A stretch of 62,166 bases of DNA, counting the filler. It is 3 parts of 3 records of this genome, joined end to end, with 100 filler letters (N's around TTAATTAATTAA, not from the genome) between each part and the next. Parts side by side here need not be neighbours in the genome. Positions count along the whole stretch, not along the records: positions 28,771 to 50,849 come from DRR723986_9877; 2 more parts are not named here. One strand, written 5' to 3'. A program made the translations under genes and the position numbers. Shown piece by piece: positions 16,049-50,949 of the stretch. Positions within the stretch are counted from its first letter, which is position 1. Each line of letters begins with the position of its first letter. The notes beneath the pieces were generated by a model. The model was not told where the DNA came from. It did no database searches and saw nothing but the letters and a program-made list of their open reading frames with translations.

Positions 16049-16082
16049 TTGGCTTTAGAATCCCAAGTTGCCTTACCGGCGA

Positions 16083-32637: not shown

Positions 32638-32695
32638 TTCCTCCCATCGAACGTGAATTGTCCGATTGTCCTCACCATGCGGCCTCCACCGCATT

Positions 32696-32742: not shown

Positions 32743-32817
32743 TCATCATTCTCGGGAAACGGTCTTGTGTCAACCCGGAATGTCGGATCAGACAGTTTCG
32801 AGGACGAACCGGCCGTC

Positions 32818-33900: not shown

Positions 33901-34344
33901 ATAGCGGCCCTGTTGCCCACCGCTGACAGGGTCGAAAATCCAACCGGCAAGTTTTGCGCAAGCATGAGGTTGTAAATTTTCTCGCTACCCGAATTCGATG
34001 TAAGCGTTGATCGGCAGTGAATCTACCCTGCAGCATAAATCATGCAACTTGATGTTTGTGCGAAAAGAAAATCTAAGGTTGTATCGAATACATCTTTCTT
34101 GGTGGTAGTCAGGTCATGTTTACCGGTCAATTTATTGGGTGAACAAATTTGCTAAGTCGGTAAATTATTCCTACTAGGAAAATATTGCCCAAATCAGATC
34201 GAATTTTAATTTCAGGATTATTTTGCTTTTATTTCATTACTTTAATTAGACTACACATTTATTGTAATTTATCGCGGGGGTTTAGCGTTTAATTAACTTG
34301 AATATGTCACTCTAGATAGTACCGTCAATTTTTGGGTGATAAAA

Positions 34345-35148
34345 ATGCGTAGTTTGGCTTTTGCCTTGGCATTGTCCCTTTGCACTTTTTTCTTACACAC
34401 TGAAGTTTCGTCGGCACAGGGCCCGCTAAAAGTAGTAGGCACGGGTGATGGCCTTGAAATGTTTCAGGAAATTGGTGCGGGCTTTGTCGAAAATCGTCCC
34501 GATATCAATCTTGAAATTCCACCGAGCATTGGCTCGGGTGGCGGTATCGCCGCCGTCAGCTCCGGCACGGAGCGCCTGGGCCGGGTCGCGCGTCCCCTGA
34601 AGGACAGTGAGGTGGAATTCGGCCTCGTTTATCTGCCGATTGCAAAAATCCCCAGCGCAATCTTCACGCACCCGTCTACCGGTATCGATGCTTTGACCAG
34701 CGAAGAACTGGTCAAGCTGTATTCCGGTGAAATAGTCAATTGGTCCGAATTGGGCGGTGCCGATCTGCGTGTCCGCCTCGTCCGCCGCGAAGACGCGGAC
34801 AGCACCTTGCAGGTTTTGAAATCGTCGATGCCGGGCTGGGCGGATATGGAGTTCTCGCCGCGCTCGAAAACGGCCCTTACCACCCAGGAAGCAATTTCCA
34901 GCGCGCGCGAAGTCGAAGGCGCGATTGCTTTCGGTCCTTATTCGAAGCCGCTTGAAGACGGACTGTCGGTCCTCAAGATCGATGGTCACCATCCGACTGA
35001 TCCGGGGTACCCGAGTTCGGTAACCCTCGCCTTGATCTATAAGGAAGGCACGCTGGACGATGAGATGAAAGCCTTCATCGACTACGCCCAGTCGGGTCAG
35101 GCTCACACATTGATCAGTAACTACGGTGGCGTACCCGTCGGTAGATAA
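34345..35148 (+). CDS. PstS-like periplasmic substrate-binding protein without transporter partners
   Basis: Signal peptide; GSGGGI, ARPL, GEIVNWSELGG, RRE..ST motifs of the PBP_like_2/PstS family. Confidence 0.8.
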   Translation: MRSLAFALALSLCTFFLHTEVSSAQGPLKVVGTGDGLEMFQEIGAGFVENRPDINLEIPPSIGSGGGIAAVSSGTERLGRVARPLKDSEVEFGLVYLPIAKIPSAIFTHPSTGIDALTSEELVKLYSGEIVNWSELGGADLRVRLVRREDADSTLQVLKSSMPGWADMEFSPRSKTALTTQEAISSAREVEGAIAFGPYSKPLEDGLSVLKIDGHHPTDPGYPSSVTLALIYKEGTLDDEMKAFIDYAQSGQAHTLISNYGGVPVGR

Positions 35149-35162
35149 CCCAATTGGTCCAC

Positions 35163-38054
35163 ATGATCCGTCACTCGTCCCTTCTCTGGCATTATACATA
35201 CGGCGCCGTTTTCACGGCGGTGTGTGCATTTGCCGGTCTTATCGGACTAGTGGCTTTCCAGCTTGAAGACAGCATGCAGCGTCAGGAGGCCGAGCTTCTC
35301 GAGCTTTCCCGCGCGCGTCTCGTGGAAACCCTGTCCGCCGACGTGAAGCTTGCCGGGACCCGTATGGAGTTCCTGTTTCAGGACAGGCTTCGTCGGATAA
35401 ATGCGTTGTCGGAGAGGGTGGATACCGCCAAGGCCGTTGAGTCACGCAATGTCGTGGCCATGTCGGAACTGCTCGGCCCGGCGGCGAAACTGGCGGATGT
35501 GGACGGCATCGTCGTTCTGGATGAGGAAGGCCATGTGATCGGCGCCTCCTCCTATTCTGCGGACCTCGTCGAACTGGGGTCCAAGATGCAGGGTCTGAGC
35601 TTCTTCAACGAGGTCGCCAAGTCGCTGAAGGACAGCTTTCCGGGAGAGAAGCTGACCTACTCTGGCGTTTTGCCGAAGTCCGAAACGGGTGTTTTTGTGC
35701 CGGGCGATCGGGACAATGAAGTGTCTCAGATCGCGTTTGTCCCGGTTTTTGATGATTTCGGCTATGTGATCGGCGGACTTGTCGCGCAACGTTGGCTGCG
35801 GCCGGAAGAGCCGCTCCTGGCGGATCTGGCAAAAATCAATTCCTTCGAAATGGCGATCGTTTTCGACGATCAGATCATTTCCACGGCGAATTTCACCGGA
35901 AACTATTCGGATCTCACCCGCTCGAAAGAAACGCCGAACATCACCCTGGACGGTGAACATGTCATCGAATGCGGTGTTCCTGTCGTTCCCATGACTGTCT
36001 GTGCGCTGACCCCCATCGCGGCGCTGACCGAAATCCAGAACAAACTGATCCGTATCGGCACCGAAGAAGAAGCAAAGCTGCTCCGGCGGCTGTTCCTGTT
36101 CGGACTGATCGCGCTGGTGGCTTTCGCTGCTGTCGCCTTTCTCATGTCGCGGCAGATTACCCGGCCGCTGACCAAGATCACGCGCGTATTGACCGGCATT
36201 GCAGCGGGCGACTTCGAAAGCAAGGTGGTTGGAACCGAGCGGCTGGACGAAGTTGGCGACATCGCCAGATCGGTCGTTTCCTTGCAGCGATCCGTCAAGG
36301 AACGCGACGCCTTGCGCGAACGCGTGCACGAAAAGAACTCCATCCTGCGCTCTCAGGAAGCCCAGTTGCGCGAGCAGAACGTCCTCTTTGATGCTGCTCT
36401 CAACAACATGTCGCACGGTCTGTGCATGTTTGACGTCGATGGAAGGTTGATTGTTTCGAACCAGCGCTACGCCGAATTGTTCGAAGTCGAGCCGGGCAGG
36501 ATAAAGTCGGGTATGACGGCTGCTCAGCTCGCAACGCTGCAGAAAGTTGATGCCGTTGAAACCGGTGACATGGCTCTGCACGATTCCCGGATGGGAGATC
36601 ACAGGTATTCAGGTGGCTCGCAAAGCACCGAAATGGTGAAGATCCGCTCGGGCCGTATCGTTCTGACCACCCGCCAGCCGCTGGCGGAAGGTGGTTGGGT
36701 GGCGATATCCGAAGACATCACCGAGCGGCAGGAAGCCCGTGACCGGCTGGCGTTCCTGGCGCGTCACGACCTTCTGACACAGCTGCCAAACCGCATCGAA
36801 TTCCGGGACCAGCTGGACATGCTGTTGAACCAGCAACTGGTCAAGGGGGGCGAGTTCGCCATTCTGTGCCTCGATCTGGACGAGTTCAAAACGGTCAACG
36901 ACAGCCTTGGGCACCCGATTGGCGATGAGCTCTTGCGGCAGGTGGCGGAGCGTCTGCGCGCCCTCATCGGCCGAAAGGACGTTGTCGTCCGCCTTGGCGG
37001 CGACGAATTTGCGATCCTCACCGGTCTGCCGTGCAGGCTTGCTGATGTCGAGGAACTGGCGCAGTCGGTCATCTGGGAGATTTCCCAGCCGTTCCAGATC
37101 ACGGATCATGAACTCGTAATCGGCGTCAGCATCGGCATCACAATTGCCAGGGCCGACGGCACTGCAGGCGACGAACTGTTCAAGCAGGCGGACCTTGCGC
37201 TCTACCGGGCCAAGGAAGACGGTCGCAATACCTACCGCTTCTTTGAGCAGGACATGGGCACGGCCGTGAACGACCGGCGAGAGCTTATCACCGATCTCAG
37301 GACCGCGGTCGCCAATGGCGAACTGGAGCTTTATTTCCAGCCGCAATACACGCTCGTGGACGACCGGGTGTCCGGCTTCGAGGCGCTGGTGCGCTGGAAC
37401 CACCCGACACGGGGCATGGTTTCTCCGGCCGATTTCATTCCGCTTGCCGAAGATACCGGCCTGATCACCCAGTTGGGCGAATGGGTGTTGAAGGAAGCAT
37501 GCCGGATCGCGTCCAATTGGCCGGACCACCTCAGGATCGCGGTCAACCTGTCACCCCGGCAGCTGCGCGGCCACGCATTTGGTCCGGTGCTGATCGATGC
37601 CCTGACCCAAACGGGTCTCAAGGCCGACCGTCTCGAACTGGAAGTGACCGAAAGCGTGCTTCTGACCGATTCAGAAGATGTTCTGGATTCGCTGCGCCAG
37701 GCCAAGTCGCTGGGCGTGAAAGTGTCCATGGACGATTTCGGAACCGGCTATTCCTCGCTCAGCTACCTGCGCCGGTTCCCGTTCGACAAGATCAAGATCG
37801 ACCAGTCCTTCGTCCGGTCGATGGCCTATTCGGACGATTCCATTTCCATCGTGAAAGCGGTCATCGAACTGGCCAACAATCTCAACATGACCACCACCGC
37901 CGAAGGTGTGGAGACCAAGCAGCTTCTCGACATGCTGACCGAAATCGGCTGCACGGAAGCGCAGGGCTACTATCTGGGCAGACCCATGCCTGTCGCCAGT
38001 ACCGAAGAGCTGATCTATGCCGGCGAACGGTCTTTGACAACCGCCGCGCAATAG
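35163..38054 (+). CDS. Membrane-bound diguanylate cyclase/phosphodiesterase (TM-periplasmic sensor-TM-HAMP-PAS-GGDEF-EAL)
   Basis: HAMP (ITRPL...DEVGDIA), PAS (NNMSHGLCMFD), RLGGDEF, FEALVRW, DDFGTGYSS. Confidence 0.93.
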   Translation: MIRHSSLLWHYTYGAVFTAVCAFAGLIGLVAFQLEDSMQRQEAELLELSRARLVETLSADVKLAGTRMEFLFQDRLRRINALSERVDTAKAVESRNVVAMSELLGPAAKLADVDGIVVLDEEGHVIGASSYSADLVELGSKMQGLSFFNEVAKSLKDSFPGEKLTYSGVLPKSETGVFVPGDRDNEVSQIAFVPVFDDFGYVIGGLVAQRWLRPEEPLLADLAKINSFEMAIVFDDQIISTANFTGNYSDLTRSKETPNITLDGEHVIECGVPVVPMTVCALTPIAALTEIQNKLIRIGTEEEAKLLRRLFLFGLIALVAFAAVAFLMSRQITRPLTKITRVLTGIAAGDFESKVVGTERLDEVGDIARSVVSLQRSVKERDALRERVHEKNSILRSQEAQLREQNVLFDAALNNMSHGLCMFDVDGRLIVSNQRYAELFEVEPGRIKSGMTAAQLATLQKVDAVETGDMALHDSRMGDHRYSGGSQSTEMVKIRSGRIVLTTRQPLAEGGWVAISEDITERQEARDRLAFLARHDLLTQLPNRIEFRDQLDMLLNQQLVKGGEFAILCLDLDEFKTVNDSLGHPIGDELLRQVAERLRALIGRKDVVVRLGGDEFAILTGLPCRLADVEELAQSVIWEISQPFQITDHELVIGVSIGITIARADGTAGDELFKQADLALYRAKEDGRNTYRFFEQDMGTAVNDRRELITDLRTAVANGELELYFQPQYTLVDDRVSGFEALVRWNHPTRGMVSPADFIPLAEDTGLITQLGEWVLKEACRIASNWPDHLRIAVNLSPRQLRGHAFGPVLIDALTQTGLKADRLELEVTESVLLTDSEDVLDSLRQAKSLGVKVSMDDFGTGYSSLSYLRRFPFDKIKIDQSFVRSMAYSDDSISIVKAVIELANNLNMTTTAEGVETKQLLDMLTEIGCTEAQGYYLGRPMPVASTEELIYAGERSLTTAAQ

Positions 38055-38103
38055 TCCGGCAAGACCGCTCGCTCTCAGGAGAGGCTGGTGTAGCGCCCTG
38101 GTG

Positions 38104-39120
38104 TCAGTCTGCGGAAGCCGAGGTAAACGGAGCGGATGCCTTTCGGATAAGGTTTCCAGCAAGGGCCAGCAGGCCGCTCTCTTCTTCCGCCACAAAAAAC
38201 GGATCAGCGTAGAAGGTTGCCCCTGCGCCTAGCGCGATCTCCCGCATGGCGTCGACATGTGACGGCGCACCGGCCGAATAGACGACGTGATCGGGCGTAA
38301 GTTGTCCGACCAGTTCATGCGGGCGCGCCTTGCGCACCGTTTCGTCGTCGCCATCGCCTGCCGTCAGGGTGATCGGAATGCCCCGGGCTTGCAGCCAACG
38401 AACCGCGTCGCGCATGTAGATCCCGTCCCGGGTTCTCGACCCGGCAATGATGCGGATTTCACGGCCGGTCTGGCCCAGGCTCGCTGCAACGGCAATCGAC
38501 CAGATCGGTGCGAAGCCGGTTCCGGTCGAGGTGAGCAGGATCGGGTTCTGCTGCCGTCGCAAAAACGCATTGCCGAACGGGCCACGCAGCTTGACGGCAT
38601 GTCCCTTGGCAATTTCCTTGCCCAGCTTCGACGATACGATGCTGTCCGGGTAGACCTTGATGTGAAACACAAGGACATTCTCTTCCGCATCCAGGTTGAG
38701 CGGGGTTGTCGGGCTGTAGTCGCGCGGCGGATATCCTGCAAAGGTCGCGCGCAGATATTGCCCTGGCAGCCAGGGCACGGGCCGCGCCGTCTTGACCCGA
38801 ACTTCCAGGTATCCGTCCTTGATCGGCCGAATGCTTTCCACCGTTCCCTTTGTGGTCTTCACCAGCGGCACCGGGTCATAGGCGATCTCGGCATCGCCTT
38901 CCAGGACGGAAAGGCATCCGAGCACGGTGTCCTTTTCCCGGGTGCCCATGTCGTCGATCTGCCCGCTCAAAACACGGACCCGGCAGGTTTCGCATTGGCC
39001 GGAACAGCAGTCGTGCGGGATGACGAGGCGTCCACCGAGCCCGGCGTCGATCAGCGTGTCGCCGACATTGGCCTTGATGGCCTTCCCGTTGATGGTGACC
39101 GTACAGGTGCTTTTCGACAT
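38104..39120 (-). CDS. 2Fe-2S ferredoxin-NAD(P)H reductase fusion (FNR-like)
   Basis: CCSGQCETC...C; RDYS flavin motif; GPFG; TGTGFAP. Confidence 0.88.
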   Translation of the reverse strand: MSKSTCTVTINGKAIKANVGDTLIDAGLGGRLVIPHDCCSGQCETCRVRVLSGQIDDMGTREKDTVLGCLSVLEGDAEIAYDPVPLVKTTKGTVESIRPIKDGYLEVRVKTARPVPWLPGQYLRATFAGYPPRDYSPTTPLNLDAEENVLVFHIKVYPDSIVSSKLGKEIAKGHAVKLRGPFGNAFLRRQQNPILLTSTGTGFAPIWSIAVAASLGQTGREIRIIAGSRTRDGIYMRDAVRWLQARGIPITLTAGDGDDETVRKARPHELVGQLTPDHVVYSAGAPSHVDAMREIALGAGATFYADPFFVAEEESGLLALAGNLIRKASAPFTSASAD

Positions 39121-39182
39121 GGGTGATTACATCCGTTGAAAGAAACGTCCGGAAAAGACAGGAAAGGCGGGAAGGGCAGGCC

Positions 39183-40970
39183 TCAATTGAAGGTCAGCCG
39201 CACGGGACGGGAATGGCGGGTGTGGCGCGTCTGGTTGTGGTCAAACGCCGAGACCCACATGAAGAGACCATCCTTCATGGCAAGGTCCTGGCTCTGGCCG
39301 GTATCCATGTTCCGGACAACTTCAAGTGTCCAGTGGCCGTCCTGCCACCTGGATCCACCCAGCAGATCTGCCCGGCTGCCGGAATATTCACCCTGGATGA
39401 GCACACCTGGAATGACCGTTCCGACCGGTATTTCCGCGTCCTTTTCCGGCGAGTACGGTACGCTTTCGTTTTCGAACATCCACCACTGCGACCCCTCGTC
39501 TTCGATCGCTTCGGTGGACAGATCGATGGTGCCCATCAACGACGTCATTTTCTTGTGGTCGATCGGAAGCCGGTGCACGCCGACCGTCCCATGATAATGG
39601 GTCACGGGATCGCCGATGTAATTGTAGACGTAGAATGCCTTGCCTTCGTCGGGATTGTAGCCGGCGCTGTAGCGGCTCTTGCCGGCAGCCTGGGCTTCGT
39701 TCGGTTCCACGGGTGTTGCGAAGTGCATGTCGTCGACGCGCCCCAGCATGCCGCCGCGCGCCGCTTTCCATTGCCACACGTCCACCAGGCTGCCATCGGT
39801 CGTATAGTGCAGGCCGCGGTAATTGAAAGCGCCTGGTTTGTCACTCAGAGGCTTCGGGCCCATGTGGGTGGCACCGCCGCCACCAAAGGTGTCGGTGGTG
39901 GAAAAGGCAACCGAGAACTTGTCCTCGTAATAGGCGGTCTCGTCGGAAATGTCGGCCCGGTTGTTCAGCATGTGCCAGCCGTCTTCACGCTTGATCAGCG
40001 GATGCCGCTTCAACGACCGGTTCTTGTCTTCCCAGCGGAAGGCAAACGCGATCTTGTCCCCCACTTGGACGGCACGTACTTCGACGGTGGATTCTCCCGT
40101 TCCGTCCAGGTTCGAGCCTTGCTGTGTCCGGATGAAAACAGGGGTCGCGTCCTGCCAGACCGGATCGTCCAGCGTGCCGTCCAGCTCCGGCAGGGTGGTG
40201 CCCTTGGCAACGACAAGGCTGTCGCGTGTGCCGAAATCGAGGCTGACGGCGCCAACAAGCACGATTGCGCCCAGGGCAGTCGCCAGGGCCAGCGGGTGAC
40301 GGCTCATCCCCGGGAAGCGGCGCAGCGCTTGCGGACGGAACAGCCGCAGCAACTGTGCAACGCCGCCATAACAATAATGCAGCACCACATGGGCAACGAT
40401 ATAGGTCAGCACCACGAGGGCGGCCGTGTAATGCACGGTCACCCAGATGCCACCATGACCGATATAAAGCAGGACGCCCGTCGCCGACAGGGTGAGCACG
40501 GCCCCGAACAGGATCCAGTAGGCGATGACGTTGACCGCGGCCAGGCGCAGCTTGGTGCTGGCGGGAAGCGTCAGAACAACGATCTTCTTGGAGGAAATGC
40601 GCCGTTTCAGTCGGCCAAGCGTCATATAGGCCGCATAGGCAAAGATAACCGCCAGAACGAATATCGCCGACACATAGTGCCAGGTCCAGATTTCACCCTG
40701 TGGCAGGATCGGTTCGAAAAGTTTGGAGAACCAGGCGTGTTCCGCATCCGCCGACAGACGCATGCCCGTCAGCAGGCTGGTGACGATCGCGATAACCAGC
40801 GTCCAGTGCAGGAGGATCGTGCCGATGTCGCTGCGTACCGGAGGGCTGCGGTCCTCGGGTCTTTTCGCCGCGCTATCCGCGCCATTGGCGTGCCGGCCTG
40901 TTTGGGATTTCTTGGATGAATTGGACGATGAAGGCAGTTCCAGGGCGTGATCAGTCACTTGGTCCGTCAA
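39183..40970 (-). CDS. Di-heme cytochrome b fused to an ethylbenzene-dehydrogenase-gamma-like (EB_dh) periplasmic domain
   Basis: TM helices with LLHW, TWHY, TVHY and VAH His ligands; C-terminal LDG.LDDPVW, YYEDK, DVWQWKA, WTLEVVR, FDH; TTG start after GGAGG (ORF is open from 40994). Confidence 0.75.
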   Translation of the reverse strand: MTDQVTDHALELPSSSNSSKKSQTGRHANGADSAAKRPEDRSPPVRSDIGTILLHWTLVIAIVTSLLTGMRLSADAEHAWFSKLFEPILPQGEIWTWHYVSAIFVLAVIFAYAAYMTLGRLKRRISSKKIVVLTLPASTKLRLAAVNVIAYWILFGAVLTLSATGVLLYIGHGGIWVTVHYTAALVVLTYIVAHVVLHYCYGGVAQLLRLFRPQALRRFPGMSRHPLALATALGAIVLVGAVSLDFGTRDSLVVAKGTTLPELDGTLDDPVWQDATPVFIRTQQGSNLDGTGESTVEVRAVQVGDKIAFAFRWEDKNRSLKRHPLIKREDGWHMLNNRADISDETAYYEDKFSVAFSTTDTFGGGGATHMGPKPLSDKPGAFNYRGLHYTTDGSLVDVWQWKAARGGMLGRVDDMHFATPVEPNEAQAAGKSRYSAGYNPDEGKAFYVYNYIGDPVTHYHGTVGVHRLPIDHKKMTSLMGTIDLSTEAIEDEGSQWWMFENESVPYSPEKDAEIPVGTVIPGVLIQGEYSGSRADLLGGSRWQDGHWTLEVVRNMDTGQSQDLAMKDGLFMWVSAFDHNQTRHTRHSRPVRLTFN

Positions 40971-41467
40971 CTTTTCCTCCAAGGCCGCCAGCAATGCGAC
41001 CGGGTTACCGGCATAGGTTGTGCAACCGGATGTCGGGAAATTTCAAAGCGCTTTGCCTAAAAAATATCACATTTTAACAAAAGTGAAGAAAAAATGGCGA
41101 ATACAACTGGCATTAAACCTATCCGGGTGGTTTTGCGCATGCTTAAAAATCTTCCTCTTGGGAAAAAAATTCAGATGACTGAAGAACAATATTGGCGGGA
41201 AGGCACGTGATCGTGAAAAAGAAACGATCATGAAGAATGATCGGGAAAGTAGAGAATTGATATTCCAATATATAGGTAGAATATCAGGTGGATCGTTTGA
41301 AAGTTGCTTTAAATTTGTGCAACGCAACTGCACGTCTTCCTGAATGCTGCTTTCCCCTGGGCTTATGCAGGAATTAAGCGGAACAGCGAAGTCGGCCCGC
41401 CGTTAACGCAAGTGAAATGGGGTTGCGGCAATGCGGGAGTAAGCCTTCTGCCTCTGGCATGAGCACT

Positions 41468-41509
41468 TTGATGCAAGTCATACGAACGCAATCATTTCTC
41501 TCTTAACTT
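41468..41509 (+). promoter_or_regulatory. Putative Fnr/FixK-type site with -10 element
   Basis: TTGAT-GCAA-GTCAT (41468-41481) and TAACTT at 41504-41509, spaced as in a class II promoter. Confidence 0.35.
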
Positions 41510-41646
41510 CATTTTGGTTGAAGCAAGTTGGGTGCCGGGCAACAGTTCAGGTTGTGTGGGATCGAAAAACCCGCCTAAGATGGTTTGCGTTGCAGCAGAA
41601 CGGGTTTTGCCCGATGTGAGTTAATTTCCTTCCCAAGGGGGCGTTA

Positions 41647-43014
41647 ATGCTGGTCTCCCACACACGGATTGTCGATATCGTTGGCGATATCATTCGCATT
41701 CAGGTGTCTTCGACGAAGAGCGAGTCGGAGGGGCGCCCGTGCTTGGGTGATCTGGCACTGGTCGATTCAGGCGATGGTGCGACGTCTCTCGCACAGGTCA
41801 TCAACATCGACCGGGACATGGTTTCGCTGCAGGTCAATTCCGGCACCAAGGGCCTCGCCAACAATTCGTCCGTACGTTTTCTGGGTGAGCCGGCCAAGGT
41901 CACCTATTCCGACAATATCCTCGGCCGTGTGTTCGACGGTGCGGGGCAGCCGATTGACCGGGGCCCGGATCTGTCCAGCGACCCTTCCGTCCCGATCGGC
42001 GGACCGTCCGCCAACCCGATGAAGCGCGTGCTTGCCTCGCGCATGATCCGCACAGATGTGCCGATGATCGATATCTTCAACTGCCTCGTGGAAAGTCAGA
42101 AGATCCCGATCTTCTCGGTTTCCGGCGAACCCTATAACCCGTTTCTGGCACGTATCGGCATCCAGGCAGACGCCGATATCGTGGTGTTCGGCGGCCTCGG
42201 GCTGATCTTCGACGACTATGCCTTTTTCCGGCAGCAGTTCGAGGATGCGGGCGTTTTCCCGCGCACGGTCATGTTCATCAACCAGGCGTCCGATCCGGTG
42301 GTCGAGCGTCTGCAGGTTCCGGACATGGCCCTTGCGGTTGCGGAAAAATTCGCCGTTGAGGAAGGCAAGCGCGTTCTGGTGCTGCTTACCGACATGACCG
42401 CCTTCGCAGATGCCATGAAGGAAGTCTCCATTGCGATGGAGCGGGTGCCCGCCAACCGGGGCTATCCGGGCGATCTTTATTCCCAGCTGGCCCGACGTTA
42501 CGAAAAGGCCTGCGATTTCAAGGGCTCAGGCTCGGTCACCATCCTTACGGTCACGACAATGCCGGGCAATGACGTCACCCATCCGGTGCCGGACAACACC
42601 GGCTACATCACCGAAGGCCAGTTCTATCTGCACAGCGGCGTTCTGGATCCCTTCGGCTCGCTGTCCCGATTGAAGCAGCATGTCATCGGCAAAGTGACGC
42701 GTGAGGATCACAACCAGATCATGAACACCATGATCCGCTTTTATTCCGGCGCGCGCGATGCGGAGCAGAAGCAGTCCATGGCGTTCGAATTGTCGGAATA
42801 CGACCACCAGCTTCTGAAGTTTGGCGGCCTTTTCCGGCGGCGTTTCATGGATATCGATGTCGCAATGCCCTTGGAGGAGGCGCTTGACCTGTGCTGGCAG
42901 ACGCTTGCCGAATGCTTCCAGCCGGAACAGCTGCTGATGAAGCAGGGGCTGATCGACAAGTATTTCCCGAAAAAGAAACCTGCCGGCGGGGCGTCTGACG
43001 AGGAGGCTGCCTGA
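41647..43014 (+). CDS. ntpB: V/A-type ATP synthase subunit B
   Basis: SQKIPIFS, LLTDMT, RGYPGDLYS, THPVPDNTGYITEGQ, SLSRL; no Walker A. Confidence 0.95.
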   Translation: MLVSHTRIVDIVGDIIRIQVSSTKSESEGRPCLGDLALVDSGDGATSLAQVINIDRDMVSLQVNSGTKGLANNSSVRFLGEPAKVTYSDNILGRVFDGAGQPIDRGPDLSSDPSVPIGGPSANPMKRVLASRMIRTDVPMIDIFNCLVESQKIPIFSVSGEPYNPFLARIGIQADADIVVFGGLGLIFDDYAFFRQQFEDAGVFPRTVMFINQASDPVVERLQVPDMALAVAEKFAVEEGKRVLVLLTDMTAFADAMKEVSIAMERVPANRGYPGDLYSQLARRYEKACDFKGSGSVTILTVTTMPGNDVTHPVPDNTGYITEGQFYLHSGVLDPFGSLSRLKQHVIGKVTREDHNQIMNTMIRFYSGARDAEQKQSMAFELSEYDHQLLKFGGLFRRRFMDIDVAMPLEEALDLCWQTLAECFQPEQLLMKQGLIDKYFPKKKPAGGASDEEAA

Positions 43015-43637
43015 TGGCAAGGCTGGCCCTCAACAAGTCGTCTCTGGCCCGGGAAAGCGGACAGCTCTCGGAATACAAGCGCTTCCTGCCGTCTCTTGAG
43101 CTGAAGAGGCTCCAGATCATGGCCGAGCGCGCCAAGGCGAAGGAAGCAGCCGTCCGCCTCGAGGCGGAGTATGAGGAGCGTTTCAACGCTCTTGCGCGGT
43201 CCCTGCCGATGATGGCCAACAAGCATGTCCCGCTGGAAGGGCTCGTGGTGTTGAAGCAGGCCGTCGTCGGCGAGCAGAACCTCTCCGGCACCCGGTTGCC
43301 GGTCCTGGAGGATATCGAGGTCGAGACGAAACCCTATTCCCGTCTGGCGCGCCCGCATTGGGTCGACCCCTATGTCGCAGGCATGCAGGAACTGTTGCGG
43401 CTCAACAAGGAGCGGGAAATTGCCAAGGAGCGTATTGCCCGACTGATCGAGGCCGAAGCGGTTATCTCTCGCAGGGTCAACCTGTTCGAAAAGGTGCTGA
43501 TCCCGCAGGCGGAACGCAACATCAAGAAAATCCGCATGGCCCTGGCGGACGCGGAACGCGATGCCGTGGTTCGTGCCAAGATCTCCAAACGCAAGACGGC
43601 AGCTCGCGGCGCCGAAACCTCGGTGGCCGAGCTATGA
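43014..43637 (+). CDS. ntpD: V/A-type ATP synthase subunit D
   Basis: LPSLELKR, RRVNLFEKVLIP. Confidence 0.93.
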   Translation: MARLALNKSSLARESGQLSEYKRFLPSLELKRLQIMAERAKAKEAAVRLEAEYEERFNALARSLPMMANKHVPLEGLVVLKQAVVGEQNLSGTRLPVLEDIEVETKPYSRLARPHWVDPYVAGMQELLRLNKEREIAKERIARLIEAEAVISRRVNLFEKVLIPQAERNIKKIRMALADAERDAVVRAKISKRKTAARGAETSVAEL

Positions 43638-45427
43638 CCATCGTCCCGCTCGTCAAGGTGAATCTGGTCGGCATCCTTGAGGACAAGGACAAGGTGCTGG
43701 AAGCCACGCAGGAATTCGGTGCCCTGCACCTGATCCCCCTGACTTCGGCACAAAAGGAACTGGAAGCCGTTCCCGCAGGCCGGGGGCGCGAAGCGAGCGA
43801 AGCCCTGCGCTGGCTCATGGACAGCAAGGCGCAGCGTCGTCCTGTCACCCATCTTGACGACTTCGACCTGGAGACGGTCGTTCAAAAGACGCTTGCCAAC
43901 CGCAAGGCGCTTCGTGACTGCGAAGACCGGGTGGCGCGCCTTGACCAGCGCATTCAGGATGTGGAGCCCTGGGGCGAATTCAGCTTTTCCGACCTGGCCG
44001 AAATCGGCGAGCACCGGCTGTGGTTCTACGTGGTGCCCAACGCCAAGATCAAGCTGATCGATCCTTCCGACAAGATCCTGGAGATCGTCCACCGCGACAA
44101 GTACCGCAGCTACATCGTGTTGCTTTCTCCGGAAGAACCGGCGGCAAATGCCATGCCGGTGCCGCGCGTTCACGTGGGGGCGGAGGCGCTCTCGGTGCTT
44201 CGGCGTCAACATGAAGATGCGACCATCCAACTGGAAGAGCTGGAGCTGCAGCGTCAGGCTCTCACCAAATGGCGGTTCGTGCTGGCGCAGAACCTTGCCG
44301 CCGCTCGAGACCATTCCGCCCGCCACAGGGCGTCGCTCGAAACAGCGGACACCGAGCAGGTCTTCGTGCTTCAGGCCTGGGCGCGGCGGGACCAGGTCGC
44401 GGAGGTCCGCACGCTTTCGGACAGTCTCGGCATCGCCCTGCTGGTGACGGATGTCGAAGTGGCCGATGCGCCCCCCACGCTTCTCGACAACAGCCCGGCG
44501 CTGGAAGCAGGAGAGGATCTGGTCGAATTCTACCAGACCCCCGGCTACAGAGGGTGGGACCCTTCGGCAATCGTCTATGTTTCCTTCGTGATCTTCTTCG
44601 GCATGATCATGACGGACGCGGGCTATGGCCTGCTTCTTCTTCTGCTGTTGTACCTGTTCCGGGCGCGCTTCAAAGGTTCGGCTTTGGGCCGGCGCATGTT
44701 CCGCATGTCCGTCTGGCTGATGATCTCGACGGCGGCCTTTGGCGTGGCAACGGGTAGCTACTTCGGTGTCGCGCCTCCCGAAGACACGTTTCTCGCACGC
44801 CTGAAGGTGCTGCATCTGAAGGACGTCGACACGATGATGAAGATCACGCTGACTATCGGCGTGACCCATATCGTCATCGCCAACCTGATGCGCGCCTGGC
44901 ACGAAACGAGCCTGAGCGGTCGCCTGCAGCCTGTCGGCTGGTGTCTGGTGGCACTCGGTGGCCTGGCAACGTTTCTGGGGCAGGGCACTTCCATTGCGGT
45001 TGCCAGCCCGGGCGCGGTGGTTGCTGGGCTCCTGCTGGTCGGCATCTTCGGCAGCGACCGCAAGGTGACATCGCTCAAGACCGGCGGCCTCAGGGTTTTT
45101 GATGGCCTCGCCTCGCTGGCCCGTATCGTCAACATTTTCTCTGATGTTCTCAGCTACATGCGCTTGTTTGCGCTGGGGCTTGCGGCAGCGTCGCTTGCCG
45201 AAACCATCAATTCGCTCTCGGGCCAGCTCAACCACGCGGTTCCTGGCGTCGGTCTGCTGATCGCCATCGCGGTTCTTGTGCTCGGGCACGCCATCAATAT
45301 CGGGCTGGGGCTGATCGCCGGCTGCGTGCATGGCCTGCGTCTGAATGTCATTGAATTTTTCAATTGGGGTTTGAAGGACGAGGGCACGCCTTTCCGTCCG
45401 TTCAAGAAAGAGGAGACACGCCTGTGA
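43634..45427 (+). CDS. ntpI: V/A-type ATP synthase subunit I (a)
   Basis: PPTLL.N, DP, FFGMIMTDAGYG, essential Arg in SYMRL, HGLRLNVIEFF. Confidence 0.94.
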   Translation: MTIVPLVKVNLVGILEDKDKVLEATQEFGALHLIPLTSAQKELEAVPAGRGREASEALRWLMDSKAQRRPVTHLDDFDLETVVQKTLANRKALRDCEDRVARLDQRIQDVEPWGEFSFSDLAEIGEHRLWFYVVPNAKIKLIDPSDKILEIVHRDKYRSYIVLLSPEEPAANAMPVPRVHVGAEALSVLRRQHEDATIQLEELELQRQALTKWRFVLAQNLAAARDHSARHRASLETADTEQVFVLQAWARRDQVAEVRTLSDSLGIALLVTDVEVADAPPTLLDNSPALEAGEDLVEFYQTPGYRGWDPSAIVYVSFVIFFGMIMTDAGYGLLLLLLLYLFRARFKGSALGRRMFRMSVWLMISTAAFGVATGSYFGVAPPEDTFLARLKVLHLKDVDTMMKITLTIGVTHIVIANLMRAWHETSLSGRLQPVGWCLVALGGLATFLGQGTSIAVASPGAVVAGLLLVGIFGSDRKVTSLKTGGLRVFDGLASLARIVNIFSDVLSYMRLFALGLAAASLAETINSLSGQLNHAVPGVGLLIAIAVLVLGHAINIGLGLIAGCVHGLRLNVIEFFNWGLKDEGTPFRPFKKEETRL

Positions 45428-45873
45428 ACGAATTCGTTGTGGCTCTCGGCTGGTTTGGGCTGTTCGCGCCGGTCGCCCTCGGCGCCATCGGCAGCGCCTG
45501 GGGCTGCGCCCTTGGCGGTAGCGCCGCGATCGGCGCCATGCTGGACAGCGACGGTGGTTACGGCCGCTTCATCGGTGTTTCGCTGATGCCGTCGTCCCAG
45601 GTGATCTACGGCATCGTGATCATGTTCTCGTTGCAGCAGCCCACCATTGATGCAGCCAATGGCGCCGCGCTTTTCGGCATCGGCCTCCTGTCTGGCGTCA
45701 CCATGCTCTACACCGGCATTCGCCAGGGCGAGGTGCTCGCCTCGGCCATTCATGCCTCAAAGGCCAAGCCGGAAATCTTCGGCATTTCCCTCGCTCCGGC
45801 GGCGGTGCTGGAAGGCTTTTCGGTCTTTGCTCTCGTCTTCGCGCTGGTCCTGTCCGGCTCGATCCCCGCTTAG
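45424..45873 (+). CDS. ntpK: V/A-type ATP synthase subunit K (c), 4-TM
   Basis: Duplicated hairpin; PSSQVIYG, RQG, VLEGF; GTG start overlapping the ntpI stop. Confidence 0.92.
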   Translation: MNEFVVALGWFGLFAPVALGAIGSAWGCALGGSAAIGAMLDSDGGYGRFIGVSLMPSSQVIYGIVIMFSLQQPTIDAANGAALFGIGLLSGVTMLYTGIRQGEVLASAIHASKAKPEIFGISLAPAAVLEGFSVFALVFALVLSGSIPA

Positions 45874-45897
45874 GGCCAGAAGGAACAGGAGGCGGCA

Positions 45898-46599
45898 ATG
45901 TCCAAACATGACGCAGCAGACGACCTGGAGAACGCCGCTGGTGCCGGTGTCCAGGCGCTTATCGAACGGCTGAAGTCCGAAGGCGTGGCCGCGGGCCAGT
46001 CGGAGGGGGATGCCATCCTGGCCAAGGCCAGGGAAAAGGCGGAAACGATCGTTGTGGAAGCAAGGCAGAAGGCGGACAGCCTGCTGGCTGATGCAAGAGC
46101 GGAAGCGGCCAGGGAAAAGGCGGCGACGGAAGACGGGCTGAAGGTTGCCGCGCGCGATCTTGTCCTCAGCCTGCGCAATGAGCTGGGCGACCGCATTCAG
46201 CAGGAAGCCGGCCGGCTGGTGGCAACCACACTTGCCGACCAGGAATTCCTGAAAAACCTCATTCTGGCGATGGCCGCCAACGCAAAGGACAATGCGTCGG
46301 TCAGCGACGCTGAGCCGATGGAGATCGTCCTGCCGGAGAAGGTCGTCACCTTCGAGGAGTTGAAGCAATCGCCCGAGGCGGTCGAGCCGGGAACCCTCAC
46401 CCACTTCGTGATTGCGCTTGCGGGCGAAGCGTTGCGGCAAGGGGTCACCTTCTCCACCGCACCGGGCTTTGACGGTATCAAGGTGAAGTTGACCGACAGG
46501 GACGTTTCCATCGATCTGACCGAAGAAGCGATCGCGACACTGTTGAAGCGGCACCTGCAACCGCGCCTCAGAGCGGTGATGGAAGGGGTGCTGCGCTGA
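45898..46599 (+). CDS. ntpE: V/A-type ATP synthase subunit E
   Basis: GVQALIERLKSEGV, coiled coil, GIKV, DLTEEAIA..L...L.PRL. Confidence 0.88.
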   Translation: MSKHDAADDLENAAGAGVQALIERLKSEGVAAGQSEGDAILAKAREKAETIVVEARQKADSLLADARAEAAREKAATEDGLKVAARDLVLSLRNELGDRIQQEAGRLVATTLADQEFLKNLILAMAANAKDNASVSDAEPMEIVLPEKVVTFEELKQSPEAVEPGTLTHFVIALAGEALRQGVTFSTAPGFDGIKVKLTDRDVSIDLTEEAIATLLKRHLQPRLRAVMEGVLR

Positions 46600-46600
46600 C

Positions 46601-47347
46601 ATGAGCCGGCCGCACCAATATATCGCGCTGGTGTCCAGCCTGCCCCATCTTGGCAAGCTGTTCTCGCGCAAGGACGTGCCGGTCTCGGGGTTCCGCTTGA
46701 AGCAGCGGCTGTCAATGCTGGAGCCCGCGCATGCGAGCCTGCTGCGCGAGATGGTGGAGGTGACGGCCTGGGCCGGTGTTGCCGGTTATGATCGCGACAT
46801 CGATGTGATCCGGCGGGCAAACAAGGTTCTTGCCGATCTGGCTGCCTATCCGGATCTGCAACATCTTGTCGGGGCACGCATGGAAACGCGGACGCTGATT
46901 GCAGCGCTGCGCCGACGCCGGGATGGACAGGAAAGCGCCGGAGATATCGAAAACTGGGGCTTCGGCCGCTGGTGCGCACAGGTCAAGGCCAACTGGAGCG
47001 ACCCGACCTTCGGTCTCGGCCATTTCATGCCGTGGGTGGGCGAGGCTCACCAACTGATGCGGGCGGGCGATCACATCGCCATGGAACGTCTTGTCCTCAC
47101 CCAGGTCTTCCGGCAGATGGGCCATTACGGCAACCTGCATGAATTCGATTTCGAGGCCGTTGCGATCTACGTGCTGCGCTGGGTGATCGTGGAACGCTGG
47201 TCACGCTACAACGAGGCCGATGCACGTGCCCGGCTGGCCACGCTCGTGGCGTCAGCCCTTGGTGGCAAGACGGGCGACGGCAGTCAAGCCGGCCGGCCGG
47301 ACCTTTTCTCAGACTTCACTTCTGCCCTTGAGGGAGCCCCTTCATGA
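46601..47347 (+). CDS. DUF2764 family protein (probable V/A-ATPase subunit C)
   Basis: YIALVSSLP, FDFEAV..Y.L....ERW; position between subunits E and A. Confidence 0.8.
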   Translation: MSRPHQYIALVSSLPHLGKLFSRKDVPVSGFRLKQRLSMLEPAHASLLREMVEVTAWAGVAGYDRDIDVIRRANKVLADLAAYPDLQHLVGARMETRTLIAALRRRRDGQESAGDIENWGFGRWCAQVKANWSDPTFGLGHFMPWVGEAHQLMRAGDHIAMERLVLTQVFRQMGHYGNLHEFDFEAVAIYVLRWVIVERWSRYNEADARARLATLVASALGGKTGDGSQAGRPDLFSDFTSALEGAPS

Positions 47348-49179
47348 CGAGCCATGTTCAGTTGCCCGAACCGACCGCGGAAATCGTCGCCGTGCAGGAC
47401 GATCTCGTCACACTGTCGCCGCTCGGCTCTGCCCCTCTCATCAAGAACGAGGTGGTCTATATTATTCCCCATGGTCCCGAACGCGATGGCAAACCGCGGG
47501 AATATCTGAAGGCCGAAGTGCTGCGCGTGCGCGGAAAGTCCGCTGAAGCACAGGTGTTCGAAAGCACTGCCGGCGTGCGCGTCGGTGACAAGGTGATCCA
47601 GAGCGGCGAGATGCTGTCGGTTGCTCTCGGACCGGGCCTGCTCAGCACGGTTTTTGACGGCTTGCAGAACCCGCTGGCCGACATTGCAGCCGAGCACGGC
47701 TTCTTCCTGCCGCGCGGGGTGCTCACCAATGCTCTCGACCAGAACCGCAAATGGTCGTTTGAACCCAAGGTGAAATCCGGTGATGTGGTCAAAGCCGGGG
47801 AAACGCTCGGCACGGTTCCGGAAGGCAGGTTCGAGCACCGGATCATGGTTCCCTTCGTCACGACGGGGTCCTGGACAGTGGACCGGATACGCGAAGGAAC
47901 GTTCACCATCAACGAGGTGGTGGCAACGCTCAAGAACGATCGCGGCGAAACCCGCGACCTGACCATGGTCCAGCATTGGCCGGTTCGCCGGGCGATCCCG
48001 GAAGGGCTGGTCAAGGCCGGTCAGAGCGAGCGGCTTTATCCAAGCGAGCCGCTGATCACCACGTTGCGCCTGATCGACACGTTCTTTCCCATCGCCCGTG
48101 GCGGTATGGGCTGCATTCCGGGTCCCTTCGGCGCGGGCAAGACGGTGCTGCAATCGCTGATTTCGCGTTTCTCGGCGGTCAATATCGTGATCGTGGTTGC
48201 CTGCGGCGAGCGCGCCGGCGAGGTGGTCGAAACGATCACCGAGTTCCCGCACCAGCCGGACCCCTCCGGAGACGGCACGCTCATGGATCGCACGGTCATC
48301 ATCTGCAACACGTCTTCAATGCCTGTGGCGGCGCGCGAGGCCTCGATCTACACCGGCATTACCCTTGGCGAATATTACCGGCAGATGGGCTACGACGTGC
48401 TTTTGATCGCCGACAGTACCTCCCGCTGGGCCCAGGCCATGCGTGAGACCTCCGGCCGGCTGGAGGAAATTCCGGGAGAGGAAGCGTTCCCCGCCTATCT
48501 CGACAGCGCCATCAAGGGCATCTACGAACGCGCTGGCGTGTTGCGGACCGCCAGCGGCGAGACCGGCAGTCTCACCATGATCGGCACGGTATCACCAGCC
48601 GGCGGTAATTTTGAGGAACCGGTCACCCAGTCGACTCTCGGCACGGTCAAGACCTTCCTGGGCCTCTCGTCCGAACGGGCCTACAAGCGCTTCTATCCGG
48701 CGGTCGACCCGCTGCTGTCCTGGTCTCGGTATCACATTCAGCTCAACGACTGGTACCAGAACAATATCGGCCCGGACTGGGTGCCCCGCGTTTCGGAGAT
48801 GATTGAGCTCCTGCGAAAGGGTGACGAGATCACCCGGATGATGCAGGTGACAGGTGAAGAGGGCGTCTCGACCGACGATTTCATCCTTCAGCAGAAGGCG
48901 CTGTTTCTCGACATGGTCTACCTGCAGCAGGATGCCTTTGACGATGTCGATGTATCGGCTCCGCTCAAGCGCCAGCAGGAAACCTTCGATCTCGTCTACC
49001 GGATCGCCCGCACCGACTTTGCCTTTGACGACAAGGAAGCCGTCCGCAAGTTCTTCACCGAACAGACGTCGCTCTTCAAGAACCTCAACTACGCCGCCGA
49101 CGGCAGCCCGGACCGCAAGGAACTGCTGGAGAAGATAAAGGCCAATGTCAGCGCTGCCCCGACACATGTGACGGGGTGA
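47344..49179 (+). CDS. ntpA: V/A-type ATP synthase catalytic subunit A
   Basis: Walker A GPFGAGKT, CGERAGE, NTSSMPVAAREAS, PGEEAFPAYL, VSPAGG. Confidence 0.96.
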   Translation: MTSHVQLPEPTAEIVAVQDDLVTLSPLGSAPLIKNEVVYIIPHGPERDGKPREYLKAEVLRVRGKSAEAQVFESTAGVRVGDKVIQSGEMLSVALGPGLLSTVFDGLQNPLADIAAEHGFFLPRGVLTNALDQNRKWSFEPKVKSGDVVKAGETLGTVPEGRFEHRIMVPFVTTGSWTVDRIREGTFTINEVVATLKNDRGETRDLTMVQHWPVRRAIPEGLVKAGQSERLYPSEPLITTLRLIDTFFPIARGGMGCIPGPFGAGKTVLQSLISRFSAVNIVIVVACGERAGEVVETITEFPHQPDPSGDGTLMDRTVIICNTSSMPVAAREASIYTGITLGEYYRQMGYDVLLIADSTSRWAQAMRETSGRLEEIPGEEAFPAYLDSAIKGIYERAGVLRTASGETGSLTMIGTVSPAGGNFEEPVTQSTLGTVKTFLGLSSERAYKRFYPAVDPLLSWSRYHIQLNDWYQNNIGPDWVPRVSEMIELLRKGDEITRMMQVTGEEGVSTDDFILQQKALFLDMVYLQQDAFDDVDVSAPLKRQQETFDLVYRIARTDFAFDDKEAVRKFFTEQTSLFKNLNYAADGSPDRKELLEKIKANVSAAPTHVTG

Positions 49180-49263
49180 TCGCCGCGTATTGCGGGCGAG
49201 TAAGCCCCGGGCTTCGCGCTGTCCGCCCGGGGTGACGCTCTGGAAACGCACTTGGTTCTGAAG

Positions 49264-49965
49264 CTATTCCTGGTCCTGGAAAACGCTCAGGATCTCTTCC
49301 AGCGGCTTCTTGATCTTGGCGACAGCCGGTACCGTGGCGTCTTTCGCGGGATGGCCGACGGCCAGGATCATGACCGGCTTTTCCGCTTCCGGGCGGTTCA
49401 GGATCCCGTTGAGGAATTTCATCGGGTTGGGCGTGTGCGTCAGGGTTGAAAGCCCCGCATGGTGAAGTGCGGTGATCAGGAGGCCGGTGGCGATGCCGAC
49501 ACTTTCGGGCACGTAGTAGTGCTTGTAGCGGGTGCCGTCGTCGAAGGTGCCCCAGCGCTGCGCGAAAATCACGATCAGCCAGGGGGCGATGTCCAGATGC
49601 GGCTTGTCCGCGTCGGTGCCGATGGGCTCCAGTGCCTTAATCCATTCGTCGCCCGCGCCGCCATCATAGAACTTGCGTTCCTCTTCCTCGGCAGCCAGGC
49701 GGATCTTGTGCTTCAGGTCGGCATTGGAAATCGCCACGAAATGCCAGGGCTGGTGATTGGCGCCGCTCGGAGCCGTTCCGGCAGCGCGGATGCAGGCTTC
49801 GATGATGGAACGGTCCACAGGACGATCCGAGAAATGGCGAACCGTATGGCGGGTCCGCACATCGTCATAAAAGTCTTGCGCACGGGCCAGCATTTCCTTG
49901 TCGTCGTAAATTCGCCGGTCCGGCAGCGGCAACGGTTGGTAATCCAGGGCTGATTTGGAAATCAT
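49264..49965 (-). CDS. Nitroreductase-superfamily flavoprotein, iodotyrosine deiodinase (IYD)-like
   Basis: [18 protein letters not shown], lid AEEEERKFY...[13 protein letters not shown]. Confidence 0.82.
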
Positions 49966-50201
49966 GTTTTTTGTCCATTTGCATTGCCGACCGCCGGATT
50001 CGCAAGGAATCCGGGCCGCGCAATCTCCTCCCACTATGCACCGTTAAGTATGGATCGACTGACCGGGCGTCAGGCAACTAAAAATCCGATCCACCGGCTT
50101 CACAACTTGAACCAAGCCCGCCTATGCTCGTCTTTGAAACGCCAAATGGCCTTGATGAAAAAATAACCTTGACCAGTGACATGGCACCTTTCTAGATTTT
50201 C

Positions 50202-50217
50202 TTGACCAATTGGTCAG
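50202..50217. promoter_or_regulatory. RutR/PydR-type operator
   Basis: TTGACCAATTGGTCAG versus consensus TTGACCAnnTGGTCAA, upstream of an NMT1-type SBP. Confidence 0.7.
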
Positions 50218-50379
50218 CACTGTTCGTTGAGAAGGCAAAATGCCCCGGCGTCCGGATGCGGCCAAACAGCCGGAAGAGGATCAGGCGGCCGGGAACCGCT
50301 CCGAGGTCCGCACCGGTTAGGGTTTGAAGTTCCAGAGAAGGGTGAGTCCGACAGCGGCTCGCCCATAACCAGTAGGGGA

Positions 50380-50849
50380 ATGGCAATGAAGGCATTGAAA
50401 AGTCTGGCGCTCGCGTCTGTCCTGGGCGCAAGCCTGGTGTCAGGTGCGGCCAACGCCGCGGACGAGCTGACACTGCAGCTTAAGTGGGTCACACAGGGCC
50501 AGTTTGCCGGCTATTACGTGGCCAAGGACAAGGGCTTTTACGACGAAGAAGGCCTGGACGTGACGATCAAGCCGGGCGGTCCGGACATTGCGCCGCCGCA
50601 GGTTATCGCCGGTGGCGGAGCCGACGTGATCATCGACTGGATGCCGTCCGCCCTTGCATCGCGCGAAAAGGGTGTGCCGCTTGTCAACATCGCACAGCCG
50701 TTCAAGAAGTCCGGCATGATGCTGACCTGCCTGAAGGAAACCGGCATCACCTCGCCGGAAGACTTCAAGGGCCGGACACTCGGTGTCTGGTTCTTCGGTA
50801 ACGAATATCCGTTCCTGTCCTGGATGAGCCAGCTCGGCATTCCGACCGA
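50380..50849 (+). CDS. NMT1/THI5-like ABC substrate-binding protein (probably pyrimidine), 3'-truncated
   Basis: Signal peptide; LQLKWVTQGQFAGYYVA..KGFY.EEGLDV. Confidence 0.88.
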
Positions 50850-50949
50850 NNNNNNNNNNNNNNNNNNNNNNNNNNNNNNNNNNNNNNNNNNNNTTAATTA
50901 ATTAANNNNNNNNNNNNNNNNNNNNNNNNNNNNNNNNNNNNNNNNNNNN
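50850..50949. other. Artificial contig linker
   Basis: N44-TTAATTAATTAA-N44; composition and gene content change across it. Confidence 0.98.

Follow-up and report, generated by a model that had tools for sequence, protein, structure and literature searches.

The window analysed here, a stretch of 62,166 nucleotides (filler included) made up of three contigs, carries on its plus strand an operon that almost certainly encodes an intact bacterial rotary ATPase of A/V type with seven subunits, maintained by selection and belonging to the clade 3 family known from Chlamydia, spirochaetes and Bacteroidota. Within that family we place it, with the same confidence, in a subfamily with an ancestrally B-first operon, which passed by lateral transfer into scattered proteobacteria and cyanobacteria and, within Roseibium and Stappia, was inherited thereafter. 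The best reading of its role, to which we give about even chances, is a Na+ pump powered by ATP and induced when oxygen is low, an account in which we infer the ion, the direction, the regulator and the trigger alike. The enzyme family and its occurrence in the genus are already known; what is added here are the Na+ ligands, the fold of the C/d subunit, a third rotation of the gene order and a low-oxygen-type promoter.

An intact operon under selection in Roseibium

Seven stop-free open reading frames (ORFs) follow one another at 41647-49179 in the order B-D-I-K-E-C-A (Table 1), and because the junction gaps from B to A amount to only -1, -4, -4, +24, +1 and -4 bases, the operon has no room for an F or G gene. 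B, K and A exceed the curated NCBIfam cut-offs; D, I and E match the correct families below the NCBIfam cut-off, D and I above Pfam's. The motifs of subunit A are intact, with Walker A GPFGAGKT at 260, GERAGE at 288 and DSTSRWAQA at 357, and subunit I has the essential Arg (motif at 507), which aligns with the Enterococcus Arg and is present in 128 of 147 aligned rows, the other 19 being gapped. ORFs, family models and motif check thus agree with the preliminary description of seven tightly coupled genes with intact motifs and no F or G. The non-homologous region PF16886 is found in catalytic A and B is non-catalytic, and the D shaft, I stator Arg, K carboxylate ring and E stalk expected of an A/V-type enzyme are all present. 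A and B score far above F-type models on V-type models and are not the F-type alpha and beta subunits that mark an N-ATPase.

Compared with the nearest genome to the window, designated G001 (6.7 Mb, three contigs, 99% complete), the operon has accumulated 129 synonymous and 21 replacement codon changes, and subunit A alone differs from that of R. aggregatum by 231 synonymous and 48 replacement changes. Judged from these codon changes, the operon is under purifying selection.

Only positions 28771-50849 (DRR723986_9877) belong with the ATPase locus, the three contigs being joined at 28671-28770 and 50850-50949 by N44-TTAATTAATTAA-N44 linkers. From 31000 to 50849 the window matches G001 in one piece, at 98% identity over 19,850 bases, and 98% identity is also seen between its subunit A and records titled Roseibium sp. 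and Stappia sp. The host of the ATPase locus is therefore Roseibium (Alphaproteobacteria, Stappiaceae), in keeping with the alphaproteobacterial origin first proposed. The third contig (50950-62166, GC about 0.51) holds a flhD-flhC-motA-motB-cheV/Y/Z/A-MCP-flhB block, presumably of beta/gammaproteobacterial type; as it lies on a separate contig behind a linker, it is uninformative on the host of the ATPase. The DNA source of the window is probably a mixed assembly.

That the locus could be an assembly artefact or a decaying relic without a working complex is scarcely credible, and the artefact reading is already refuted: G001 holds the stretch in one piece, so the gene order is as intact as had been claimed, and the same order recurs in 73 of the best 80 loci from named genomes. 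The missing F and G could be taken as signs of a relic, as could the RNA data, which gave no usable expression signal. About half of the sampled words are present in 14 RNA runs from 7 studies, and in four runs assembled contigs span operon and flanks equally, which, with DNA carry-over possible and depth unable to rank genes, is not evidence of expression. The surplus of synonymous changes stands against decay.

Table 1. Coordinates of the ATPase genes and of predicted upstream elements in the window.
Feature	Position	Strand	Evidence
Subunit B, non-catalytic, Chlamydia/spirochaete-type, 455 aa	41647..43014	+	NF002555 705 bits (cut-off 431); PF00006
Subunit D, central shaft, 207 aa	43014..43637	+	PF01813 6e-30; NF002565 3.5e-49
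Subunit I (a), membrane stator, essential Arg510, 597 aa	43634..45427	+	PF01496; Arg alignment
Subunit K (c), double hairpin, one ion site, 149 aa, GTG start	45424..45873	+	NF007200 154 bits (cut-off 108)
Subunit E, peripheral stalk, 233 aa	45898..46599	+	NF002424 9e-23; profile matches to the solved E subunits 4DT0 5e-9, 2DM9 7e-9
Shortened subunit C/d, DUF2764-like, predicted rotor socket, 248 aa	46601..47347	+	Fold match
Subunit A, catalytic, 611 aa	47344..49179	+	NF003220 753 bits (cut-off 470); intact motifs; PF16886
FNR/FixK (Crp/Fnr)-type palindrome TTGAT-N4-GTCAT, predicted activator site	41468..41481	+	26/34 Stappiaceae upstream regions vs 56/1720 control windows
Predicted -10 TAACTT	41504..41509	+	36 bases from box start; box centre near -41.5

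No F or G subunit found, and a probable shortened subunit C

Hidden Markov model searches of five genomes found subunit F (PF01990) in none of them, with the control positive in 6 of 14, and likewise no subunit G/H (AhaH, TIGR02926), in the genomes or in the operon, with positive controls; G is short, and a very divergent copy could escape. With that proviso, neither gene was found, in line with the first description, and the lack of F sets the enzyme apart from the canonical A-ATPases of Thermus, Enterococcus and archaea.

The gene between E and A had been labelled C(DUF2764). Its position and its length of 248 residues stand; the family label is weak, since the window protein matches DUF2764 (PF10962) at E=0.035 and 14 bits (cut-off 24), with the relatives at loci L097 and L099 matching at 5e-7 and 3e-5. 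A structural model of the protein (mean predicted local distance difference test score 88) found as its top two among 48,161 chains a V-ATPase d subunit (6vq6_d; Z 10.6, root-mean-square deviation 5.0, 207 residues aligned) and Thermus subunit C (1r5z_A; Z 9.9, deviation 4.8, 201 aligned), the next chain following at Z 7.1. These Z values are moderate for a helical protein and lie under the Z 13 caution line; Foldseek and PDB sequence-profile searches gave no match. As both top fold matches are the subunit expected here and the operon context agrees, we read the protein as a shortened C/d, contrary to a recent preprint (bioRxiv 10.64898/2026.10.01.756066), which, in the text covered, suggests a different protein. 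The structures searched included no solved structure of the seven-subunit family.

Gene order and phylogeny

At least 505 relatives were matched, and gene order was read in the best 80 loci from named genomes, a sample skewed to the query. Seventy-three of these are complete with the order B-D-I-K-E-C-A, the other seven run off the end of a contig, and in none does B follow A. Evenly drawn samples gave eight alphaproteobacterial loci (six complete and B-first, one without A upstream of B, one canonical) and 13 gammaproteobacterial loci (11 without A directly upstream, one cut, one canonical). B-first is thus the prevailing order in proteobacterial and cyanobacterial copies. For comparison, 36 complete E-C-A-B-D-I-K loci were assembled, mostly from a metagenome scan with a canonical alphaproteobacterial B, six of 80 records having been excluded beforehand. 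A third rotation, D-I-K-E-C-A-B, was found in two genomes of a small pseudomonadotal class. Its loci (L290 in G618, 9479-16874; L291 in G661, 8398-15963) come from two families of this 38-genome class and have the full Na+ motif.

In a tree of A and B from 50 taxa, rooted on two Firmicutes and containing no chlamydial sequence, the B-first and D-first operons form one clade of 33 taxa (SH-aLRT 100, aBayes 1) amid canonical-order relatives. The D-first operons are nested inside it beside the cyanobacteria (96.9/1), and forcing them outside is rejected (approximately unbiased test, p=0.018; 5000 replicates, fast constraint search). An earlier view of B-first order as the mark of an exclusive single clade (57/57) was corrected, as the two D-first loci fall within. 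The Firmicutes outgroup is split off by a 100/1 branch, and the window B belongs to the PRK02118 family, grouping with E-C-A-B-D-I-K operons. As in clade 3, a short DUF2764-type gene stands between E and A without F; the linear order differs from the E-C-A-B-D-I-K of that clade, while the cyclic order is identical.

With the Firmicutes order (G)-I-K-E-C-F-A-B-D included, the four linear orders are cuts of one cycle. Rotation would thus be ancestral to the subfamily, recurrent in the enzyme family and probably near-neutral. The rotation noted at the outset is real relative to E-C-A-B-D-I-K; it was not made in this host but is shared by the whole subfamily, which the B-first order marks across Alphaproteobacteria, Gammaproteobacteria and Cyanobacteria. 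Leftover duplicates, sought as a mark of duplication and loss, flank the operon at none of 80 complete loci, so duplication-loss and a circular intermediate are not distinguishable.

Some relatives are damaged. On a Tateyamaria plasmid C is split in two (L147 8268-8959), about 1.4 kb is inserted between E and C in L084 (7816-9269), and about 2.7 kb including a transposase-like ORF lies between C and A in L292 (4152-6871).

The K subunit and the coupling ion

Aligned with the K subunit of Enterococcus hirae (NtpK, 2BL2), residues M55, S58, Q59, Y62, Q101 and E130 of the window K correspond to L61, T64, Q65, Y68, Q110 and E139. K thereby has both parts of the Na+ rule given in the preprint (bioRxiv 10.64898/2026.10.01.756066, text covered), namely [STQ][STQ]xxY in hairpin 1 (S58-Q59-x-x-Y62) and Gln/Glu in hairpin 2 (Q101, E130). 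Because Ser replaces the second carboxylate in the first hairpin, each K has one ion site. The F-type c subunit of G001 is a single hairpin without Na+ ligands. The ligands of the window K indicate that the ATPase is probably Na+-coupled.

The full motif is kept in 63 of 83 rotated-order K subunits versus 43 of 47 canonical ones. The remaining 20 rotated-order K lack one motif residue; all 15 of the cyanobacterial branch have Met at the Gln65 position, and three others have Phe. Met-for-Gln65 K subunits occur in L035, L037, L038, L065, L068, L069, L072, L074-L079, L081, L082 and L292, and the replacement in the cyanobacterial branch is a possible natural switch of the coupling ion. An ATPase that is H+-coupled, or promiscuous for H+ and Na+, and serves pH homeostasis would find its support in these departures and in the ability of Na+ enzymes to move H+; with the whole motif retained by the window K and by most of its rotated-order relatives, we consider it very improbable for the locus described here.

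A predicted low-oxygen promoter

The region before B contains a predicted FNR/FixK-type activator box followed by a predicted -10 hexamer. No more than 450 bases from B, 26 of 34 Stappiaceae loci have a relaxed form of the box, as do 56 of 1720 control windows, and with TAnnnT required at a fixed offset the counts are 22 of 34 and 2 of 1720; a similar box-plus-hexamer pattern has 15 matches in the entire G001 genome. An activator box centred at -41.5 is the expected geometry. On the minus strand, a divergent pair at 38104-40994 encodes a cytochrome b561 plus EB_dh heme-binding protein (603 aa ORF) and a 2Fe-2S/FAD/NAD reductase; it is kept next to the operon in about half of the Roseibium loci, and of the 17 loci in which the divergent cytochrome gene is absent, 9 still have the box. 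In G001, ccoN is preceded at 91 bases by a perfect box and has an FNR/FixK-type regulator of the ETVSR-helix kind nearby, and further boxes stand before Usp, phasin and hemA-like aminotransferase genes, so that the genome has what looks like a functional regulon. In three Oceanospirillum loci the box is close to the consensus and is followed by a -10 at an identical offset. The reverse complement of the window's box resembles ATGAC-N4-ATCAA, and FnrL of R. sphaeroides binds sites in which one of the halves is ATGAY (PMC2908626 Table 2).

Several observations weigh against such a promoter. The box has two mismatches to the consensus, with its last base deviating here and both ends deviating in several species; we relaxed the pattern with the alignment already in view, and the related loci are not independent. 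At least seven Crp/Fnr-type genes are present in G001, so another regulator could own the site, and ccoN lacks TAnnnT at the same offset in four of five genomes. Nor is the signal clade-wide: it occurs at 4 of 42 non-Stappiaceae loci versus 122 of 2070 controls, with one weak match among evenly drawn gammaproteobacterial loci, and a box common to the whole clade was rejected. Generic sigma-70 and terminator scans gave nothing above chance (hairpin after A, z -0.39). The conserved box with its -10 suggests that the ATPase works when respiration falters.

A second conserved element, CCTAAGAT, occupies 41575-41581, some 70 bases ahead of B, and is itself preceded at 17-18 bases by a TTG-type hexamer; the two may form a second, regulator-independent promoter.

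Proposed role and its alternatives

As an ATP-driven pump, the enzyme would hydrolyse ATP in A3B3 and so turn D, seated in the shortened C/d socket on the K ring; each K would take a single Na+ past Arg510 of I for export from the cell, with E holding the stator, apparently without G. An FNR/FixK-type activator would switch the operon on at low oxygen, and membrane potential and a Na+ gradient would be kept up from ATP when respiration fails. The resident H+-coupled F-type enzyme is poorly suited to pumping because the zeta inhibitor of hydrolysis is present, as it is in all 21 Roseibium searched.

The rotor could also run the other way. A Na+-driven ATP synthase, drawing on a Na+ gradient from Nqr or Mrp under conditions of low proton motive force (in alkaline water, at low oxygen or after membrane damage), appears to us rather unlikely. 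Nqr leans to carriers of the ATPase (38 of 52 Roseibium carriers versus 8 of 20 non-carriers, p=0.013), although in complete genomes the association has p=0.077; the Mrp antiporter is present in five of five genomes; and some hosts come, by name, from alkaline settings (Nitrincola alkalisediminis, Marinospirillum alkaliphilum). Of the two preprints cited here in the parts of their text covered, one (bioRxiv 10.1101/2023.05.11.540287) proposes synthesis for the Bacteroides relative, V-type mutants of B. fragilis dying in deoxycholate, and by the other (bioRxiv 10.64898/2026.10.01.756066) a K10 ring could synthesise ATP. Yet 14 of the 52 carriers, the nearest genome included, have no Nqr, and Rnf is absent from all five genomes searched; as G001 has neither Nqr nor Rnf, we found no primary Na+ pump that could supply synthesis. 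The genes for PPK2 and carbamate kinase next to some operons, ATP sources that do not depend on respiration, speak instead for a supply of ATP. One reversible enzyme could both pump and synthesise.

Those neighbours are found in relatives. PPK2 lies between B and D in three cyanobacterial loci (L035 4885-5700, L037 1981-2796, L078 4784-5554) and 92 bases after A in one more (L061 11898-12638), which makes 4 of 46 non-Stappiaceae loci; an initial count of eight was cut to these four co-oriented ones, the other four being on the opposite strand with 31-34% identity. Carbamate kinase immediately precedes B on the same strand in 5 of 80 loci, and neither gene adjoins any of 40 canonical loci. It counts against the proposed pump that PPK2 adjoins none of the 34 Stappiaceae loci, that G001 has no arcA, and that within Roseibium the presence of arcA is not associated with that of the ATPase (9 of 52 versus 2 of 20, p=0.72); on the last two grounds arginine deiminase was rejected as a genome-wide partner. 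Arginine deiminase genes adjoin the operon upstream of B in L039, L040, L075, L096 and L147, divergently in L146, and also in G463, G477 and G492; the carbamate kinase gene of the Tateyamaria plasmid overlaps B at its start, and an Enterococcus gallinarum record has arcA just upstream of its ntp operon. A neighbouring SulP cluster (six loci) was dropped, as tblastn gave the query locus and one weak match.

The Na+ export could also serve salt stress independently of oxygen, as in N-ATPases, the palindrome then belonging to another Crp/Fnr regulator. The complete Na+ site fits this explanation, and so do the constant presence of a second ATPase in the ten hosts checked, a patchy spread with two plasmid copies, and hosts that are largely marine or saline by name. 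We judge it quite unlikely: Mrp is already present, the box fits FnrL-bound sites (PMC2908626), one Roseibium also has an N-type-like operon, and freshwater-type cyanobacteria carry the operon with one Na+ ligand lost.

Distribution and the second ATPase

Members of the subunit B family are present in 52 of 72 genomes of Roseibium and in 62 of 132 of Stappiaceae as a whole. Even samples, seed genome included, gave 8 of 401 Alphaproteobacteria, 13 of 400 in the class of Nitrincola (one genome unscored) and 2 of 251 in the cyanobacterial phylum. The ATPase is common in Roseibium and patchy elsewhere, and with the system also largely in print, the impression that it is unusual and unreported does not survive. 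Two copies lie on alphaproteobacterial plasmids, and the Stappiaceae copies form one branch with L061 (100/1). GC content at third codon positions is 0.74-0.81 in the operon genes versus 0.62-0.85 in seven neighbours (two poorly framed rows left out). This host-like composition, with synonymous changes far above replacement changes, sustains the view of an old, retained acquisition, and the pattern as a whole agrees with an early gain that was later passed down and in places lost.

Besides its V-type operon, G001 contains two neighbouring PF00006 genes that we interpret as F1 alpha and beta, and a separate single-hairpin c subunit is found in all ten hosts checked, so that the enzyme is indeed, as had been supposed, a second rotary ATPase. 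In R. aggregatum SY-2-12 (G402) an extra beta, c and alpha cluster (C2:303863-308757) resembles an N-type ATPase, and this strain may carry three rotary ATPases. A 1.1 Mb alphaproteobacterium (G039, L094 6334-18700) has a canonical-order, spirochaete-like V-ATPase operon with F1 delta/alpha/gamma/beta/epsilon-like genes directly behind it; the equivalent of Tyr68 is missing from its K. Family f191 (16/16) and related families represent a different V-type ATPase, below the NF002555 cut-off, common in the small pseudomonadotal class with D-first operons. Two record titles look wrong: the operon and flanks of a 'Rhizobium' metagenome-assembled genome (L082) are near-identical to those of Cyanobium/Aphanothece, and a 'Mycobacterium' (L061) groups with Stappia.

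Relation to known systems and significance

Already in 2008, a V-type beside an F-type ATPase was listed for L. aggregata (Labrenzia/Stappia) IAM 12614, in a table that also names V-type ATPases of Nitrosococcus, Neptuniibacter, Beggiatoa and Synechococcus WH 5701 (PMC2359735 Table 1). That entry concerns the same host genus and records presence only, with 'gene order' occurring nowhere in that paper. According to the text covered of the preprint by Mulkidjanian, Kuchevskiy and Dibrova (bioRxiv 10.64898/2026.10.01.756066), clade 3 enzymes are mostly Na+-coupled and lack F and G, and one branch has a half-operon shift. That text does not spell out a linear order; moreover, the preprint's branches differ in K length, whereas here K has about 149 aa in rotated and 144 aa in canonical operons, so that the rotation in the window is likely, but not certainly, that of the shifted branch. 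Regulation, a third rotation and Roseibium find no mention in the text covered.

The Bacteroides/Parabacteroides operon E-DUF2764-A-B-D-I-K has the same seven subunits and Na+ ligands and is likewise second to an F-type enzyme; it differs in being un-rotated, and its A is only 44-47% identical to the window A. In the parts covered, its describers call its function uncharacterised and report that it is needed in bile acid (bioRxiv 10.1101/2023.05.11.540287). The Ntp enzyme of Enterococcus hirae (2BL2) shares the double-hairpin K, the Na+ ligands and the status of second ATPase but has F, G and a full-length C, and the Enterococcus gallinarum order, G-I-K-E-C-F-A-B-D, is unlike that of the window. 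Cyanobacterial operons (Cyanothece 8801/8802, Cyanobium, Synechococcus) show the same patchy second-ATPase pattern and are called enigmatic in the passages covered, with Methylococcaceae and Rhodospirillaceae as nearest relatives (PMC3187577, PMC7434838); unlike the window, those sampled here have Met for Gln65 in K and, in three loci, PPK2 inside the operon. The main text of a study of Cyanobium in dark anoxia (PMC13588713) does not mention the ATPase. N-ATPases, too, are laterally spread, second rotary ATPases of Na+ type with rearranged operons, but they are F-type whereas the window's is A/V-type. In the literature searched, with subscription journals largely outside it, we found no functional test, FNR link or D-first order. 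The role of the enzyme is thus uncharacterised as first described, whereas the family and its occurrence in such hosts were already in print.

The locus is ordinary as flagged, and its value is practical: a culturable marine bacterium carries the enzyme as a second, probably dispensable ATPase, which opens to experiment the questions of how a V-type motor manages without F and G, of its working direction and of the reason for its retention in aerobes. The predicted, conserved promoter of FNR/FixK type points to low oxygen as a specific condition for this ATPase. More tentatively, as a possible if doubtful generalisation, the B-first clade might be a mobile 'anoxia battery', the A/V-type counterpart of the N-ATPases: a minimal motor without F and G, taken up by those aerobes and phototrophs whose F-ATPases are locked against hydrolysis, and letting them pump ions with ATP drawn from energy stores (polyphosphate, arginine) once oxygen or light runs out, FNR/FixK-wired in Roseibium, retuned from strict Na+ use in cyanobacteria, and encoded by a freely rotating operon with four cut points. 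If so, Roseibium would be a harmless and culturable model for the structure of the chlamydial and spirochaete type of enzyme.

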